Origin: Terriglobia bacterium
GTDB lineage: Bacteria > Acidobacteriota > Terriglobia > Bryobacterales > JACQDG01
Length of the DNA: 64,000 nt
Reading direction: 5' to 3'
Assembly: GCA_041482115.1 (NCBI GenBank)
Contig: JBGPDC010000001.1
Span: 24,296-88,295, forward strand
Below, one piece after another: positions 3,467 through 8,944 of the stretch. The notes beneath the pieces were generated by a model that was not told the DNA's origin, ran no database searches, and saw nothing but the letters and a program-made list of their open reading frames with translations. A program made the position numbers and the translations under genes. How positions within the stretch are numbered: the stretch's first letter is position 1; every line of letters begins with the position of its first letter.

Positions 3467-4024
3467 GTGAACCAGCACGTCGCTTTCCTGCGCGCCATCA
3501 ATGTGGGGGGACGGGCGGTCGTCAAAATGACCGACCTGCGGGAGACGTTTGCCGCCGCGGGGTGCCGGGACGTCAGAACCTATATCCAGAGCGGGAACGT
3601 CATCTTCGAGTCGCCCACGGAAAACACCGCCGCGTTGTTTCAAAAGGTCCGGGTCCAGCTCCGCAAACTGCTCGGTCAGGAACCCGGCGTTGTGTTCCGA
3701 AGTGTTCGCGAGTTCGAAGGCATGGTAAGGAGCGCCCCCTTCCAGAGTCTCGAAGCCGAACCGGGCATAAAGCTGTGCGTCGTCTTTTTGTCTCAAAAGC
3801 CGCGCAGCAGGCCGCGCTTCCCTTTGGTTTCTGCCCCAGAAGCTGTGGAGGCCGTAGGGATGAAGAACCTCGACGTGTTCGTCGTAAGCCGCCGCAAGAA
3901 GAATGGCTTCCATGGCTTCCCGAATGGTTTCATCGAGAAACAACTGGGCGTTCCGGCGACCACCAGAAACTGGTCGACCGTTCTAAAGATCGTTGAACTT
4001 GTCCGCCCGGAGCCCGGTCGCTGA
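3467..4024 (+). CDS. DUF1697 domain protein
   Basis: ORF 3047..4024 trimmed to GTG 3467. HVAFLRAINVGGRAVVKMTDLR...YIQSGNVIF is the DUF1697 signature. Confidence 0.75.
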   Translation: MNQHVAFLRAINVGGRAVVKMTDLRETFAAAGCRDVRTYIQSGNVIFESPTENTAALFQKVRVQLRKLLGQEPGVVFRSVREFEGMVRSAPFQSLEAEPGIKLCVVFLSQKPRSRPRFPLVSAPEAVEAVGMKNLDVFVVSRRKKNGFHGFPNGFIEKQLGVPATTRNWSTVLKIVELVRPEPGR

Positions 4025-4034
4025 CCGCGCAGCG

Positions 4035-6662
4035 TCAGCGAAAATTCTCGACGAGTACCAGGTCACTCGATTCTGAGGCGAGCGTGTACAGAATCTTCTT
4101 ACCATCCGGAGACACGCTCAGACCAAAGCCTGGGGTTTCCGGAAGCCGGGTCAGGACCCGGCTTTGGCGCGTCGAGAATGCGAAAAACTTCATAGGAAAC
4201 ATCCCGGCTTGGTCCGCCCGTTCCGTGTAGTAAATGCCCTCCGCGGTCACTGCAAAGGCGCGGCTAAAGACGGAGGGCAGCACTTGTTGTTCGCCGCCGC
4301 CCGCCAACAGCCGGGAAAAGAGCGGCGACGAACCGCCTCCCGTCTTGGTGTAGTACAGAATTCGACCGTCTACCGATTCCACGGCGACGTAGCCCCCCTG
4401 ATCGGTTATAAGCGCCGGTTCGCCGCCGGAAGCCGGTACTCGAAAGATTTCGTCTCTTCCGCCGTTCCGGTTGGAGCTGAAGTAGATCCATTTTCCGTCG
4501 CGCGACCAGTTGGGTATGCGATCACTGGCCGGATGCTGAACGACGGGCCGGGGCCGGCCCCCGGTGGAGTCGATCACGTAGATGTCGGGAGTTCCATCGG
4601 CCGTCCGAGAATCGTAGGCAATCCACCGCCCGTCGGGCGACCAGCGCGGACTGCCGGTAGACCTGGGAGAGGATGTCAACTGCAGGGGATGGGAGCCGTC
4701 CGACTCGCAGACCCAAATTTCCCCCCGCCCGGAACGATCAGAAAGAAAAGCGATTCGCTTCCCATCCGGAGAGAACTGGGCGTTGTTTTCGCTACGGGTG
4801 GAGGAGATGAGGCGGCGGGAGCCTGCGCCCGTCTCAAAAATCCAAATGTCAGCATCGGAGGTTTGGTTCGCGTAGGCCAGCAGGCCCGTCTTGGAGATGG
4901 CGGGATACTCACTGGATTCCGGGGCAAAGACCAATCGCTGGGGCGGACCAGACACCACCGGCGCCCTCCACAACCCGAACCCGAGCGCGTACGCGTTGCT
5001 CAGACCGCCGTACAACAGAGTTTGGCTGTCGGAGGCCCACGCTAACCCACGGAGGTTAATGCCCTGCGGGGTCAACAGCCGTGCTTCGCCCTTAGGTCTC
5101 AAGCCACTTTCCAGCTCGGAGATGTAGATTTCGCAGGTATAGTTATTGCTGCAGGACGCGAACGCCAGCCGGCGCCCGTCCGGAGAAGGAACCGGTGAAC
5201 GGTACTCCGCCGCCGAACCCGTGGATACGATCAAGCGGTTCTCCCCGCCTTCCAACGGCATCAGAAAAATTCCGCCCGGTTGTTTGGGCGTCGGGCGCTG
5301 GGCCGCCACGATCCATTTACCGTCTGGAGACCACGAGATCGCGCCGTCGGCGTCGAAGTCCGCCAGCTTGCGCTCCGCTCCTCCCAAGGGCGACACCAGC
5401 AGGATGACCTGTCCTCGCACGAAGGCAATGTTTTTGCCATCGGGTGACCACGCTGGAAAGAGATCCGGGGCTGGATCGGTGGTAAGCCGGAGCGGCGCGC
5501 CCGCCGAGCCGATGATCTTGACATAAATATCCCAGTTGTCCTGCTTGTCCCCGTTCCAGGCGAAGGCTACCTGGTTTCCATCCGGGGAAAAGGTCGGGTT
5601 TGTTTCCGACCCCGTGTAACTCGTCAGCGGCGACGACTTCAAAGCGGGTATGGGCGCAGCCGGGCGGGGGCGTAACAAGATCCAGGCCGCGACTACGGCG
5701 ATCACTGCGATCGCCGCCATCGCTACCCAGCCCCAGCGCCGGACGGGCGGGGCAGGCGCGACGTCTCCCGGGGTCACCCGCCCAGAATCGGACTCCTCTT
5801 TCACCTCCTCCAGTTGGACCTTTAGGTCGGCCATGTGCTGGAAGCGCCGCGCGGGATCCTTCCGCAAACACCGCAGGATGATCCGTTCCAACTCTCTCGG
5901 CAGGGCCTCGACCGTCAGGCTCGGAGCCTTTGGTTCCGTATGCAGGATGGCGGCCATGGTAGCGGCCGACGAGTCGGCGGAAAACGGCCGGCGGCCGGTA
6001 ACCATCTCGTACAAGACCGTGCCGAAGCTAAAGATGTCCGACCGGGCGTCCACCTTGCGGCCTTCGGCCTGCTCGGGGGACATGTAGGCCACGGTCCCCA
6101 GGACGGCGCCGACTTCTGTATGCTCACGCGCGTGCAGGGTGCGAGTGGGGGCGTTCGAGTCGGAGGCATCGGGCTCAGTGGGCTCAGCGAGCTTGGCCAG
6201 ACCGAAGTCCAGCACCTTGACGACCCCGTCTTCGTTGACCATCAGGTTGCCCGGCTTGAGGTCCCGGTGGACGATGCCGGCGCCATGGGCCTTCGTCAGA
6301 GCGTCGGCAATCTGGATCGCACAACGTAGCGCTTCGCCCACCCGCATTCCGCCGCGGCCGATCAGCCGGTCGATGGTCTGGCCGCGAACGTACTCCATGA
6401 CGAGGAAGTCCACGCCGCCGTCCTCGCTGATGTCGTGAATCGTGATGATGTTCGGATGGTTCAGGGCCGAGGCGGCGCGAGCTTCTTGAATGAACCGGCG
6501 GCGGCGCCCTTCGTCGGCCATACGCTCGGCGGGAAGGACCTTAATCGCGACTTCACGGCCCAAGCGGGAATCGCGAGCTTTGTAAACCTCGCCCATCCCG
6601 CCCGCGCCCAGGGGGCCGAGTATCTCGTACGGACCAAGGTTCGTGCCGGCTGCCAGGCGCAT
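4035..6662 (-). CDS. Ser/Thr protein kinase with TM segment and TolB-like (PD40/WD40-like) beta-propeller repeats
   Basis: Kinase motifs GAGGMGEVYKA, HRDLKPGN, DFGLAK and SPEQ. TM segment WGWVAMAAIAVIAVVAAWILL. Repeated SPDG(K/R)xIAF PD40-type blades. Confidence 0.9.
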   Translation of the reverse strand: MRLAAGTNLGPYEILGPLGAGGMGEVYKARDSRLGREVAIKVLPAERMADEGRRRRFIQEARAASALNHPNIITIHDISEDGGVDFLVMEYVRGQTIDRLIGRGGMRVGEALRCAIQIADALTKAHGAGIVHRDLKPGNLMVNEDGVVKVLDFGLAKLAEPTEPDASDSNAPTRTLHAREHTEVGAVLGTVAYMSPEQAEGRKVDARSDIFSFGTVLYEMVTGRRPFSADSSAATMAAILHTEPKAPSLTVEALPRELERIILRCLRKDPARRFQHMADLKVQLEEVKEESDSGRVTPGDVAPAPPVRRWGWVAMAAIAVIAVVAAWILLRPRPAAPIPALKSSPLTSYTGSETNPTFSPDGNQVAFAWNGDKQDNWDIYVKIIGSAGAPLRLTTDPAPDLFPAWSPDGKNIAFVRGQVILLVSPLGGAERKLADFDADGAISWSPDGKWIVAAQRPTPKQPGGIFLMPLEGGENRLIVSTGSAAEYRSPVPSPDGRRLAFASCSNNYTCEIYISELESGLRPKGEARLLTPQGINLRGLAWASDSQTLLYGGLSNAYALGFGLWRAPVVSGPPQRLVFAPESSEYPAISKTGLLAYANQTSDADIWIFETGAGSRRLISSTRSENNAQFSPDGKRIAFLSDRSGRGEIWVCESDGSHPLQLTSSPRSTGSPRWSPDGRWIAYDSRTADGTPDIYVIDSTGGRPRPVVQHPASDRIPNWSRDGKWIYFSSNRNGGRDEIFRVPASGGEPALITDQGGYVAVESVDGRILYYTKTGGGSSPLFSRLLAGGGEQQVLPSVFSRAFAVTAEGIYYTERADQAGMFPMKFFAFSTRQSRVLTRLPETPGFGLSVSPDGKKILYTLASESSDLVLVENFR

Positions 6663-6705
6663 GCTGGTGTTGGTCGTGATGGTACTACTTTCAGAGCGCC
6701 GAGCG

Positions 6706-6846
6706 CATCATCGCCTGACCCCTCACCAAACAATTCAACCACTTGCAAATAATGTTGCAGATCTGCAACTTTTTCCAGGCCCGCTACACCGCCCCATCTT
6801 TCCCCCGCCGCAGCACCGTGACATTCTCCAGCGTCACGAGGTCGGC
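6706..6846. repeat. diverged direct-repeat copy A of the DUF190 3' end plus terminator
   Basis: Aligns by eye with 7467-7614. Shared blocks are CAATTCAAC, TGCAGATCTGCA and CAGCACCGTGAC(A/C)TTCTCCAGCGTCACGAGG. Confidence 0.75.
6784..6846 (-). pseudogene. relic of DUF190 C-terminus (20 codons)
   Basis: The minus strand reads ADLVTLENVTVLRRGKDGAV*, compared with the intact gene end GLVTLEKVTVLQYGPSSRGKDAEA*. An in-frame TAG lies immediately upstream. Confidence 0.65.
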
Positions 6847-6900
6847 CTAAACCGTGGTCAGGCCGCCGAGCTGCCCGCTGATAGAATAAGCTTGCGGGGC

Positions 6901-7327
6901 ATGTTCGAGATCAGGAGCGAGACCGTAGGCGAATCATGGACCAGATCGATGCGGCCTGCAGGACGAACCGGAGCGCGAAACACGAAACAACAAGGTTCTA
7001 AGGCCGAACCGGCTGGCCGAGAGGGAACTGCGGATCGACCGCTTCCGAGTTTTCTACGACATTGACAAGGGAAAGACCGTTGTGAAGATTGAAGCGATCG
7101 GACATAAACGTGGCCAGCTCGTGTCCGTTCGTGGCGAGGAGTTCATTCTTGCAGAGGTCGACGACCTCAACCGGGAGATCGAGTTGGCACGTCAGAACCG
7201 CGCGCTAATGAGGTTTCTGGATTCTCGCGCCCGGCAAACCGAGACCGTTTCGTCGGAAGAGGTCCGGAACCTCCTGGGCCTGCCTGGGTCAAGGGCCCGG
7301 CGGGAATCGCGGCTGACACACCGGTAG
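6901..7327 (+). pseudogene. degenerate RelE/ParE-family toxin fused in frame to an antitoxin-like C-terminal tail
   Basis: Frame 2 from 6929 reads LQDEPERETRNNKVLRPNRLAERELRIDRFRVFYDIDKGKTVVKIEAIGHKRGQLVSVRGEEFIL, a RelE/ParE-like C-terminal half. It then runs into EIELARQNRALMRFLDSRARQTETVSSEEVRNLLGL, which is antitoxin-like. The N-terminal pieces MFEIRSE and IMDQIDAA lie in other frames, and there is a stop at 6926. Confidence 0.5.
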
Positions 7328-7360
7328 AAGAATTGCGGAAGGACGGTGATACAAGATACG

Positions 7361-7393
7361 CGGTTGCCTGCGAGCAGTGCTCGCTGACAACCG
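7361..7393. other. compound stem-loop
   Basis: CGGTTG-cct-GCGAGC-agt-GCTCGC-tga-CAACCG, i.e. outer and inner 6-bp stems. Confidence 0.6.
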
Positions 7394-7411
7394 AATGTCA
7401 GACCGACGATT

Positions 7412-7437
7412 TTGACCCGGCAAATTTGCCGGGTCAA
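7412..7437. other. perfect 26-bp palindrome
   Basis: TTGACCCGGCAAA|TTTGCCGGGTCAA. The arms are exact reverse complements with no spacer. Confidence 0.85.
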
Positions 7438-7466
7438 GCCCACTCCGCCCTCCGCCCCTGGGCCCC

Positions 7467-7614
7467 CATCACCCCTCCCCAACCAATTCAACGACTTAAA
7501 AAAAGAGTGCAGATCTGCACTCTTTATTCGGCCCCACTACGCCTCCGCGTCCTTCCCCCGGCTGCTCGGGCCGTACTGCAGCACCGTGACCTTCTCCAGC
7601 GTCACGAGGCCGCT
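7467..7614. repeat. direct-repeat copy B (authentic DUF190 3' end plus terminator)
   Basis: Partner of 6706-6846. It contains the real stop codon of the DUF190 gene at 7537. Confidence 0.75.
7497..7523 (-). terminator. rho-independent terminator of the crcB-DUF190 operon
   Basis: Perfect 20-bp palindrome AGAGTGCAGATCTGCACTCT at 7504-7523. On the minus strand it is followed by T7 (the A7 run at 7498-7504). It begins 14 nt after the DUF190 stop. Confidence 0.8.
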
Positions 7615-7893
7615 CCCCATCATCGGATCGATCGCTTCGACGAACGCCTGGATCTTCTCCTCGCTATCGACGATCTCGATCACCACCGGCAGGTCTTCCG
7701 AGAGCCGCAGGATCTTCGAGGTGTGCAGGTGGCTCGAAAGCCCGAAGCCGAGCGGGCCGCGCAGCACCGTCGCGCCCCCCAGGTGCATCTCCCGGGCCTT
7801 CAGGACGATCGCTTCGTAAAGCGGCCTCCCGCCCGCCCTGTCCGCCTCGCCCACGAAAATTCTCAGCAACATCGCTTGCCGCGGGATCTGCAT
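7537..7893 (-). CDS. DUF190 domain protein (CrcB-associated)
   Basis: MLLRIFVGEADR...LPVVIEIVDSEEKI is typical of DUF190. The ATG lies 1 nt after the crcB stop. An alternative start is M8. Confidence 0.8.
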   Translation of the reverse strand: MQIPRQAMLLRIFVGEADRAGGRPLYEAIVLKAREMHLGGATVLRGPLGFGLSSHLHTSKILRLSEDLPVVIEIVDSEEKIQAFVEAIDPMMGSGLVTLEKVTVLQYGPSSRGKDAEA

Positions 7894-7894
7894 G

Positions 7895-8302
7895 CTACCT
7901 CTCGTTCAGCGCGCTCGCCGCCAGATAGCCGAGCCACACCCCGGCCAGGCACAATAGCAGCGAGCCCGCGATGTTGCCGGCCGCCTTCCCCCAGTCCCCG
8001 TCCCGCGCCAGGTTCAGCGTCTCCAGGCTGAAGGTGGAGAAGGTCGTGAAGCCGCCGCAGACGCCCGGCATCACGAACTGCCGCACCACCGCCGGCGCGA
8101 ACCAGCGGCCTTCCGGACCGGTCAAGGCGGCGAAGAATCCGATGAACGTACAGCCCACGATATTGACCAGCAGCGTACCCCACGGAAACGTCTCACCGAG
8201 GTGCCGCGCCGCGAGACCGTAGCACCAGTAGCGCGTCAGGCCGCCGAGCGCGCTGCCGCAAGCCACCCATAAGTAAGGTGAAAGAAGCCAGGAAGAAGGC
8301 AA
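7895..8302 (-). CDS. crcB: fluoride ion channel CrcB/FluC
   Basis: GSALGGLTRY...GTLLVNIVGCFIIG-like...GFCGGFTTFSTFS motifs. The TTG start at 8302 is uncertain; an internal GTG is possible. Confidence 0.85.
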   Translation of the reverse strand: MPSSWLLSPYLWVACGSALGGLTRYWCYGLAARHLGETFPWGTLLVNIVGCTFIGFFAALTGPEGRWFAPAVVRQFVMPGVCGGFTTFSTFSLETLNLARDGDWGKAAGNIAGSLLLCLAGVWLGYLAASALNER

Positions 8303-8376
8303 GCCCCATTCTACAACCGCTCTGAGGAACCAAAACCGATGCGCTGGTGTCCACCTGTTACAGAAGGGGGATCTGT

Positions 8377-8856
8377 ATGCAAATGGCGTTGCCAGGCACG
8401 ATATCGTTTGCTGGCCTGTTCTTGACTTTAGCGCTGATCTCCGCAGTCTCCCTCAGCAGCATGCCCGAGGGGATTTTCGTCTATATCGCCGGAACACAAG
8501 AAGATTGCGTTGACAACAGAAGGACAATCGTGGCGACCGCCCTGCGGAACGGCGACGTCGTGCTAAATCAGGACACCGTCAAGCGTGCAAACCTGGAGAA
8601 CCGTTTGGCAGAAATGCTCAGGACGAGAGCAGAGCGGTTCCTCTTCCTCAAGGCTGAACCGGACGTTCCGTTCCAGGAAGTTATTGAGGTGATCGATGCG
8701 GCAACCAAACAGGCTGCCCATGTCGCTATCCTGACGCCGTTTGTTGACGCGGAAGCAAGAATAGAGCCCCACTGCCTGGCAGTCTCCCTCCCGGATAAAC
8801 CACTGCACCTGACAATACCCCTCCCGGCTGAATTGCAACCCAAAGTCCTGGAGTGA
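8377..8856 (+). CDS. ExbD/TolR-like biopolymer transport protein (orphan)
   Basis: ORF 8347..8856 trimmed to ATG 8377, with RBS AAGGGGG at 8364-8370. One TM segment, then RFLFLKAEPDVPFQEVIEVIDAATKQAAHVAILTP, which resembles the ExbD/TolR periplasmic domain. GC is locally lower. Confidence 0.55.
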   Translation: MQMALPGTISFAGLFLTLALISAVSLSSMPEGIFVYIAGTQEDCVDNRRTIVATALRNGDVVLNQDTVKRANLENRLAEMLRTRAERFLFLKAEPDVPFQEVIEVIDAATKQAAHVAILTPFVDAEARIEPHCLAVSLPDKPLHLTIPLPAELQPKVLE

Positions 8857-8944
8857 TACCGCAGGCCAGGACGCCATGAACCTCTAGCCCGTACTCCCGA
8901 GGCCGCCAGCAGGAGAGCATCGCACTGTCCGGACACTACCCGTT

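Follow-up and report, generated by a model that had tools for sequence, protein, structure and literature searches.

Why would the 3' end of a gene be found twice in a row, with decayed DNA in between? This question is raised by a locus in a Terriglobia bacterium (phylum Acidobacteriota; GenBank assembly GCA_041482115.1, contig JBGPDC010000001.1). We analyzed 64,000 nucleotides (nt) of this contig (positions 24,296 to 88,295 of the forward strand), which we call the window, and coordinates are those of the window unless another sequence is named. The gene in question encodes a DUF190 (PII-like) protein and lies just downstream of crcB, which encodes a fluoride exporter; a second piece of its 3' end lies beyond it, ahead of a protein kinase gene. 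A preliminary description, made from the letters alone, saw here the footprint of an element that had integrated into the gene's 3' end, supplied a replacement end (attL/attR-like), and then eroded. Relative to an empty site in a related locus, 768 nt (6845–7612) were indeed inserted at about codon 94 of the DUF190 gene, along with their own 3' end, so we agree with the first part of that account. The site-specific element fares less well: we found no remnant of a recombinase in the insert and no integrase family recurring next to DUF190 in 76 other loci, and the end that was brought in is the normal downstream sequence of the operon in two relatives.

Two copies of the 3' end of the DUF190 gene

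Three features are needed to follow the argument:

7537–7893, minus strand: the intact DUF190 (PII-like) gene, 118 amino acids (Pfam PF02641, E = 1.6e-38)
7471–7612, minus strand: copy B, the working 3' end, with the last 25 DUF190 codons (7537–7612), a terminator (7502–7525), and a 27-nt box (7471–7497); matches the corresponding segment of the related contig L176 (described below) at 90% identity
6718–6844, minus strand: copy A, the displaced relic, with the last 20 DUF190 codons, hairpin A (6754–6769), and the box (6718–6744); recognized by alignment to copy B and by translation, and by position the equivalent of the DUF190 3' end of the related contig L177 (described below)

These limits are from the best local alignment (Smith-Waterman), in which 106 of 125 positions are identical (85%), with one gap of 15 nt and three gaps of 1–2 nt. 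MAFFT and a repeat search agree, and the identity is 80–82% once more taxa enter the MAFFT alignments. The similarity is far above chance: the alignment score was 116, as compared to 19.1 ± 2.8 for shuffled sequences (maximum 32, n = 500) and a maximum of 31 among about 1000 random chunks of the window. So the diverged direct repeat in the preliminary description is real, and its estimate by eye, three quarters identical with an indel of about 15 nt, was right about the indel and slightly too low on the identity. It also listed correctly what the copies have in common, which is a shared sequence (CAATTCAAC, within the box), a palindromic terminator (a hairpin with core TGCAGATCTGCA), and the last codons of DUF190.

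The exact 12-mer TGCAGATCTGCA occurs in the 64 kb only at the two terminators, and there are two further sites with one mismatch; about 0.1 would be expected. Both hairpins were detected by a scan for terminator-like sites. The terminator of copy B is followed by TTTTTTT on the minus strand and by TTTATT on the plus strand; the scan did not list the plus-strand one. The duplicated segment extends 66 nt beyond the stop codon, through the terminator and the box. The two copies are most similar at the inner edge of the repeat, in a block with 33 of 35 positions identical (including an exact run of 18 nt); no other stretch of the DUF190 coding sequence is as conserved as this block.

Copy A, which sits 55 nt ahead of the start of the kinase gene, reads TAG|ADLVTLENVTVLRRGKDGAV* on the minus strand: it is a relic open reading frame (ORF; 6784–6846) that is closed off by an in-frame stop upstream (6847–6849), as had been noticed. 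The 15-nt gap takes YGPSS of the ...VL(Q/R)YG motif out of copy A. This motif is kept, in the same form or a close variant (YR in some), in the DUF190 homologues that we examined, so copy A is a dead, decayed fragment. Besides the 15-nt deletion, it carries 11 private substitutions, and its private states include the stem GTTGCAGATCTGCAAC and the tail ...RGKDGAV. In its terminator stem, two compensatory pairs differ from all five relatives.

A related locus has the empty site

We found near relatives of the locus by searching for DUF190 proteins, listing the members of 90% clusters, and then retrieving their contigs. One of these, L177 (JGI 3300055273, 998 nt), is 92% identical to 8319–7471 of the window. 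In L177, the 3' end of DUF190, the terminator, and the box run straight into sequence that matches 6717–6632 of the window, which includes this feature and the first codons of the kinase:

6663–6717, minus strand: upstream flank of the kinase gene; in L177, the DUF190 terminator box directly adjoins it (over 6717–6632, 82 of 85 positions are identical, or 96.5%)

Positions 968–998 of L177 encode MRLAAGTNLG, which is the N-terminus of the kinase in the window. The distance from the DUF190 stop codon to the kinase ATG is 119 nt in L177, versus 874 nt in the window. The DUF190 gene of L177 is intact, and L177 contains neither a second 3' copy nor the toxin-antitoxin (TA) module that we describe below. 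L177 is thus an empty site of the kind that the preliminary description had expected, with the kinase directly next to the operon, and it preserves the ancestral state: crcB-DUF190, then the terminator and the 27-nt box, then the kinase. Given this empty site, the 768 nt entered at codon ~94 with a replacement 3' end, and the old end was left behind as a relic. The net gain is 755 nt rather than 768 nt because the relic has since lost 15 nt.

The insert contains a decayed toxin-antitoxin module

Between the two copies lie 626 nt (6845–7470); the preliminary description gave 620 bp and was right that this DNA is decayed. From the inner junction toward copy B, the features are:

6845–6876, no strand: 32 nt between the junction (6844/6845) and the start of similarity to TA modules; holds a 15-nt match to crcB
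6877–7144, plus strand: decayed ParE/RelE-type toxin gene, including a promoter-like region (TGATAGAAT), with ATG at 6900 (Pfam ParE_toxin, E = 1.7e-5; alignment to L165 and L164)
7133–7327, plus strand: C-terminal two-thirds of the antitoxin, fused in frame to the toxin at GGCGAGGAGTTC (7133–7144); the residual ORF is 7082–7327, 81 amino acids
7361–7393, no strand: hairpin 2, peculiar to the window; L176, L172, and L177 have no counterpart
7412–7437, no strand: hairpin 1, a perfect 13+13 palindrome, TTGACCCGGCAAATTTGCCGGGTCAA; also in L176, with the outer stem bases changed, and the similarity to L176 stops at its base
7438–7470, minus strand: 33-nt flank that comes after the box of copy B; L172 and L176 have it too, copy A and L177 do not

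In frame +3, the insert codes for the C-terminal half of a toxin of the ParE type, which runs on into an antitoxin-like tail. In intact members of this family, which we identified by protein search, a toxin of 97 amino acids (for example P0172, which matches PF05016 with E = 5.9e-9) is followed, with an overlap of 4 nt, by an antitoxin of 87–94 amino acids (P0124, P0126). For comparison we used the module in L165, whose antitoxin is intact and whose toxin lacks the first four codons. Window 7133–7288 is 91% identical to 1060–1215 of L165, and 98 nt that lie between two GGCGAGGAGTTC repeats in L165 are absent from the window. This 12-mer encodes GEEF and occurs both at the end of the toxin and inside the antitoxin. 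The toxin has also lost about 40 nt after MFEIR, has a 1-nt frameshift near 6965, and lost its last two codons with the fusion. The similarity to the TA family spans only ~6877–7288. Since the fusion, the deletion, and the frameshift have broken both reading frames, the pair is a pseudogene. The TA chimera and strong hairpins that had been noticed between the copies are therefore borne out, by the ParE_toxin match, by the 98-nt fusion deletion, and by the folding of hairpins 1 and 2 (together, a free energy of -45 kcal/mol, z = -7). The GC content of the insert is 55–61%, versus 65–70% around it. Searching the region against Rfam gave nothing at the gathering threshold and only weak, chance-level matches on the hairpins.

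The same in-frame fusion at GGCGAGGAGTTC (GEEF) is present at 351–362 of L164, an unrelated contig of 623 nt (ENA ERZ27247320 k141_266587) that is 87% identical to window 6987–7204; the flanks and the toxin lesions are different. A third toxin-antitoxin fusion, P0226, has another junction. Deletions that tether the C-terminal part of the antitoxin to the toxin seem to be a recurrent route of decay in this family. In L165, the module lies between direct repeats of 10–12 nt, T[G/T]AGCGTCCCAC, at 669–688 (the truncation point) and at 1219–1238 (the antitoxin stop). Chance alone would yield repeats this long, though where they lie is suggestive.

At the inner junction (6844/6845), the similarity to DUF190 ends abruptly, and there is at most 2–4 nt of microhomology. 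Within the first 32 nt of the insert, and 12 nt from this illegitimate junction, 6857–6871 exactly match 15 nt of crcB (8235–8249) in the same orientation (GCTCGGCGGCCTGAC on the minus strand, CrcB residues ALGGLT). The match scored 30, versus a maximum of 29 in about 1900 random chunks of 864 nt. We considered whether it is a relic of a second crcB gene, but the flanks do not align. Coincidence, filler DNA picked up at the junction, and a remnant of another crcB are all conceivable.

Could the insert be what is left of a mobile element? The reading closest to the preliminary description is an eroded site-specific integrative element of the e14 or phage 21 type, moved by a tyrosine or serine recombinase with its core around CCTCGTGACGCTGGAGAA in DUF190. 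An attP arm would have carried the substitute DUF190 3' end and the terminator, the TA module would have been stabilizing cargo, and later deletions would have reduced the element to 768 nt. Direct repeats of the 3' end of the gene do flank the insert, an empty site does exist, and the 33/35 block, 18 nt of which match without a break, is at the inner boundary, the place expected for a core. On the other hand, no frame of the insert holds a remnant of a recombinase: the six-frame translation of 6840–7475 contains TA fragments only, and the only Pfam match is ParE_toxin. Searches of plasmid and phage collections with the region found no match. We also examined 80 more distant DUF190 loci, from one genome per species, and in 76 of these we examined the first two genes downstream of DUF190. 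Among those genes no integrase family recurs in the 76 loci (by Pfam), and none of the 80 loci contains a second 3' fragment of DUF190 in direct orientation within 6 kb. Finally, intact elements with this TA pair and a 3' fragment of DUF190, which the preliminary description had proposed to look for, did not turn up in these loci or in the examined contexts of the TA family. The TA family is common (211 matches), and in the contexts that we examined it forms free-standing islets among chromosomal genes, without DUF190; conversely, the pair is found in 0 of the 80 DUF190 loci.

Donor-like loci in related bacteria

Another relative, L176 (ENA ERZ1760238, 4037 nt), has ThrRS, a Zn-ribbon gene, crcB, and DUF190 in common with the window, at 91–92% identity. 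L176 continues through the terminator, box, and flank of copy B and through hairpin 1, and then it diverges. Its repeat segment is 90% identical to copy B, which is in line with the rest of the locus, as expected for a fast-evolving segment. L172 (ERZ1759591) is similar to L176: the end of copy B, the flank, and hairpin 1 lie downstream of the same operon. So copy B, 26–60 nt of flank, and hairpin 1 together are what follows the operon in both L176 and L172 (across the flank, the alignment of L172 reaches 7445 and that of L176 reaches ~7420). After hairpin 1, there is no TA module or kinase within the next 366 nt of L176 or the next 59 nt of L172, and those 366 nt of L176 do not contain a relic copy either. 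They do include a convergent ORF (3672–4037) that matches Tricorn_C1 (E = 1.7e-10) and is cut off about 100 nt before hairpin 1, which makes it another broken gene at the same boundary.

These loci bear on the integrative element in both directions. The window, L176, and L172 share the ~190 nt nearest the would-be attL and differ beyond it, as is seen in families of elements with conserved ends and variable cargo, and the truncated Tricorn_C1 fragment after hairpin 1 of L176 marks a further junction there. But the duplication, in running 66 nt past the stop codon and ending exactly at the edge of the operon unit, resembles a host locus and not an att arm. The end of copy B, the flank, and hairpin 1 are normal in L176 and L172, which fits recombination between related chromosomes at least as well as an att site borne by an element. 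Overall we think that an eroded integrative element is possible but doubtful.

Could the repeat have arisen in place instead? Foreign hairpins and a TA module might have been inserted just after the terminator box, with 127–142 nt of the target being duplicated, and the copies would then have diverged, B under selection and A freely. The divergence of 18–20% between A and B could be reached from the split between the window and L176 if A drifted about three times faster. Also, the hairpin loop AGATCT is common to A, B, L176, and L178. However, not one site groups A with B against the relatives (there are zero such patterns for A and B versus L176 and L177, and zero for A and B versus L176, L172, and L170). 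The two compensatory pairs in the stem of A are unlikely under free drift, given that over the same time no more than 3 changes accrued in the 85-nt flank next to it. And we know of no insertion mechanism that duplicates ~135 nt of its target. We consider duplication in place to be improbable.

The operon is also found elsewhere. L170, L171, and L173 have the same unit of ~850 nt, 89% identical and with the same sharp edges, in a quite different context, where a GAF gene lies upstream and an ORF for a secreted protein lies downstream. (Window 7476–8318 corresponds to 3981–4826 of L170 and to 820–1665 of L173, the context being that of another metagenome-assembled genome [MAG], GCA_041496425.1; the left edge is at GGTTGTAGAATG.) Judging from these alignments, the crcB-DUF190 operon seems to behave as a discrete exchangeable unit, and its occurrence in other contexts in L170 and L173 implies that the locus is recombination-prone.

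Two further explanations can be considered. First, there might have been two unrelated events in a hotspot for accessory genes: a second full crcB-DUF190 unit would have been placed beside the first, the TA module would have arrived separately, and the first ~720 nt of the older unit would have been deleted later. In favor of this, the unit occurs, sharply bounded, in at least three contexts; both of its flanks differ between the window and L176 or L177, with the ExbD-like segment at 8320–8941 being in neither; and the 15-nt stretch that is identical to crcB lies 12 nt from the relic. However, this scenario requires more events than one-step models do, the net extra 755 nt amount to one insert with one duplicated end, and the crcB-like 15-mer has no alignable flanks. 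A hotspot of this kind is, we think, unlikely to be the explanation. Second, the ~850-nt unit or the 768-nt insert might be a small non-autonomous mobile cassette, moved in trans by a site-specific system that recognizes conserved end boxes, GGTTGTAGAATG on the left and AAGTNGTTGAATTGKTTGG on the right. If so, then the relic, the sharp edges in three or four contexts, and the variation in the flanks would be products of repeated exchange of cassettes. We view this as a long shot.

How the insert may have arrived

We observe the repeat, the empty site, the contents of the insert and their decay, and, in relatives, copy B with its flank and hairpin 1. To explain these, we tentatively favor the import of DNA from the crcB-DUF190 locus of a relative, joined by homology on one side and illegitimately on the other; we would give this somewhat less than an even chance. 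A segment of DNA would have replaced or entered the locus in the window's lineage, with the homologous side in or upstream of the operon and the other end joined illegitimately inside DUF190 at codon ~94 (6844/6845). The donor would have been the crcB-DUF190 locus of a related bacterium, in which the operon was followed, as it is in L176 and L172, by the short flank and hairpin 1, and in this donor also by hairpin 2 and a convergent ParE-type TA module. The resident 3' end, terminator, and box would have been pushed 768 nt downstream, to decay ahead of the kinase. With a 3' end, a terminator, and a box arriving as part of the new piece, DUF190 would have stayed functional. The TA module, being useless or harmful, would then have decayed: a slippage deletion between the GGCGAGGAGTTC repeats would have fused its genes, and the toxin deletion and the frameshift would have come after the fusion. 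Three things here are inferred: how the DNA was joined (by homology-facilitated illegitimate recombination, or HFIR, or by a comparable event with homology on one side), which donor it came from, and in which order the changes occurred.

L176-type and L177-type loci diverge exactly at the outer end of the repeat (6718/7471), as would be expected if two alleles of one locus were joined. As for the homologous side, to the left of ~8016, 17 sites of the window match L177 and 9 match L176, while to the right 28 match L176 and 12 match L177 (Fisher's exact test, p = 0.006; permutation test corrected for the choice of breakpoint, p = 0.056). This hints at a homologous crossover inside crcB near 8016. 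A breakpoint test with L170 and L172 gave no signal (p = 0.29).

Several points weigh against the import. The test for a mosaic is only borderline after correction. The pairwise identities among A, B, L176, and L177 are all 80–90%, and they do not tell us which copy was the resident. We did not find a donor that has hairpin 1, hairpin 2, and the TA module in that order, and the mechanism is read from one scar. The block of highest identity lies at the inner edge of the repeat, as an att core would. And an equally good reading of L176 and L172 is that related elements occupy these sites, since only 366 nt and 59 nt of contig, respectively, follow hairpin 1.

Two other ideas about ancestry were dropped as more relatives were added. 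A four-sequence analysis had suggested that relic A was a sequence of the L170 lineage, and this result, together with counts of sites with L170 and L172, had pointed to another origin for the 5' part of DUF190. Once L176 and L177 were included, A was about equally distant from all of them (80–85%), and both ideas were abandoned.

Neighboring genes and other observations

On either side of the insert are:

4035–6662, minus strand: Ser/Thr protein kinase with PD40/Tricorn-type beta-propellers, 875 amino acids (Pfam Pkinase, E = 1.5e-50; PD40, E = 4e-55)
7895–8302, minus strand: crcB, fluoride exporter, 135 amino acids from TTG (123 amino acids in databases; NCBIfam CrcB equivalog, E = 4.8e-55)
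8307–8318, minus strand: GGTTGTAGAATG, an extended -10-like box; in all of the relatives, the ~850-nt crcB-DUF190 unit has its sharp left edge here

The best homologue of the kinase other than itself, from a metagenome scan and a protein database, is 56–58% identical and is not syntenic. The closest relatives of the DUF190 protein differ at 2–5 of 118 residues, as counted by reading the sequences. The 80 loci from representatives of species share only crcB-DUF190 with the window; none of them has the kinase, ThrRS, or any noncoding similarity. The only other locus of the 80 with a second DUF190 3' end is L012, from a Stellaceae MAG, in which two convergent DUF190 genes (1157–1510 and ~1545–1990) have 3' ends that nearly touch.

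The similarity of L170, L173, L176, and L177 to the window begins at 8318/8319, and the sequences upstream of this differ. The apparent start of the operon is an extended -10-like sequence, TGTAGAAT, which lies only ~5 nt ahead of the TTG. There is no fluoride riboswitch upstream of crcB (8303–8346) at the gathering threshold of Rfam or at E ≤ 1. Farther upstream, an ORF that resembles ExbD/TolR (8347–8856; Pfam ExbD, E = 5.8e-6) lies within a 622-nt segment, 8320–8941, with a GC content of 54–56%, versus 65–70% around it. In place of this segment, L176 and L177 have ~67 nt with a hairpin, CCGCTGCAAATTTGCAGCGG. This is a second indel, exactly on the left edge of the crcB-DUF190 unit.

We also looked at the hairpins and the box as possible repeats or recombination sites. 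The hairpin cores are not genome-wide repeats: besides TGCAGATCTGCA, which is found exactly only at the two terminators, GCAAATTTGC occurs once in the 64 kb. The loop core GCAAATTTGC does recur in hairpins that flank the operon unit, namely the terminator of L170 (~4775–4790) and the upstream hairpin of L176 (~2725–2745), as well as in hairpin 1 of the window (7412–7437) and of L176 (~3650–3675). We rejected the idea that the box is an integron attC site: GTTGAAT is present, but there is no paired R'' (we sought RYYYAAC/GTTRRRY), and the similarity among the copies continues 14–20 nt past GTTGAAT instead of ending at G|TT. Another contig, L003 (Logan SRR29604914, 1713 nt), is identical to ~9150–7445 of the window and ends at 7445, just before the perfect palindrome. 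The similarity to L172, as found by BLAST, stops at 7445 too. The break at 7445 is probably an assembly break at the hairpin.

Significance and comparison with known systems

The locus is a natural example of how a gene can survive an insertion in its own end, with the incoming DNA bringing a spare end. The states before and after the event, and donor-like states, were recovered from metagenomes of uncultured Acidobacteriota. We see a fluoride-resistance operon and a TA pair being exchanged and decaying at a recombination-prone spot. For annotators, the 127-nt fragment and the 81-amino-acid ORF are relics. We do not think that the locus reveals a new mechanism or answers an open question.

How does the scar compare to known systems? 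In E. coli, the icd gene extends into the element e14, and a C-terminal pseudogene, icdC, is at the far end (PMC13626634). As with e14 or phage 21 in the 3' end of icd (E. coli K-12), the insert lies in the 3' end of a protein-coding gene, a substitute end keeps the gene intact, and the original end survives as a fragment of a pseudogene on the far side, so that a diverged direct repeat results. However, e14 is a 15-kb prophage that has its own integrase and excises upon SOS induction, whereas here there are 768 nt without a trace of a recombinase. Also, in our case the duplication takes in the terminator and another 30 nt past it, and the substitute end is an ordinary chromosomal allele of related bacteria. 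In its architecture, the locus matches the e14 type, but it lacks one defining feature of that type, the recombinase.

The cargo toxin has the fold of the ParE/RelE type II TA systems (PF05016), and in intact relatives it is overlapped by 4 nt by a small antitoxin. Unlike in those systems, the toxin comes first, the antitoxin has no Pfam family, and the pair in the window is a pseudogene.

HFIR has been described (PMC3240628), and the displacement of 3' ends, with orphaned 3' regions and a mechanism, has been described at Rhs and type VI secretion system (T6SS) loci (PMC5361080). As in HFIR or in the displacement of C-termini at Rhs, contact-dependent inhibition (CDI), and T6SS effector loci, there would be a homologous anchor on one side and an illegitimate join on the other, with the newcomer taking the expressed position and the old 3' part becoming a downstream orphan. 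Going by the alignments, our locus shows the testable features of HFIR and 3'-end displacement, except for a significant donor tract upstream. Those systems diversify the tips of toxins under selection, often in arrays, whereas here a housekeeping-like gene for fluoride resistance, whose function is unchanged, has a single relic and no apparent selective benefit. Scars of this kind are already known, and we view the locus as a well-documented but ordinary new case, of modest interest.

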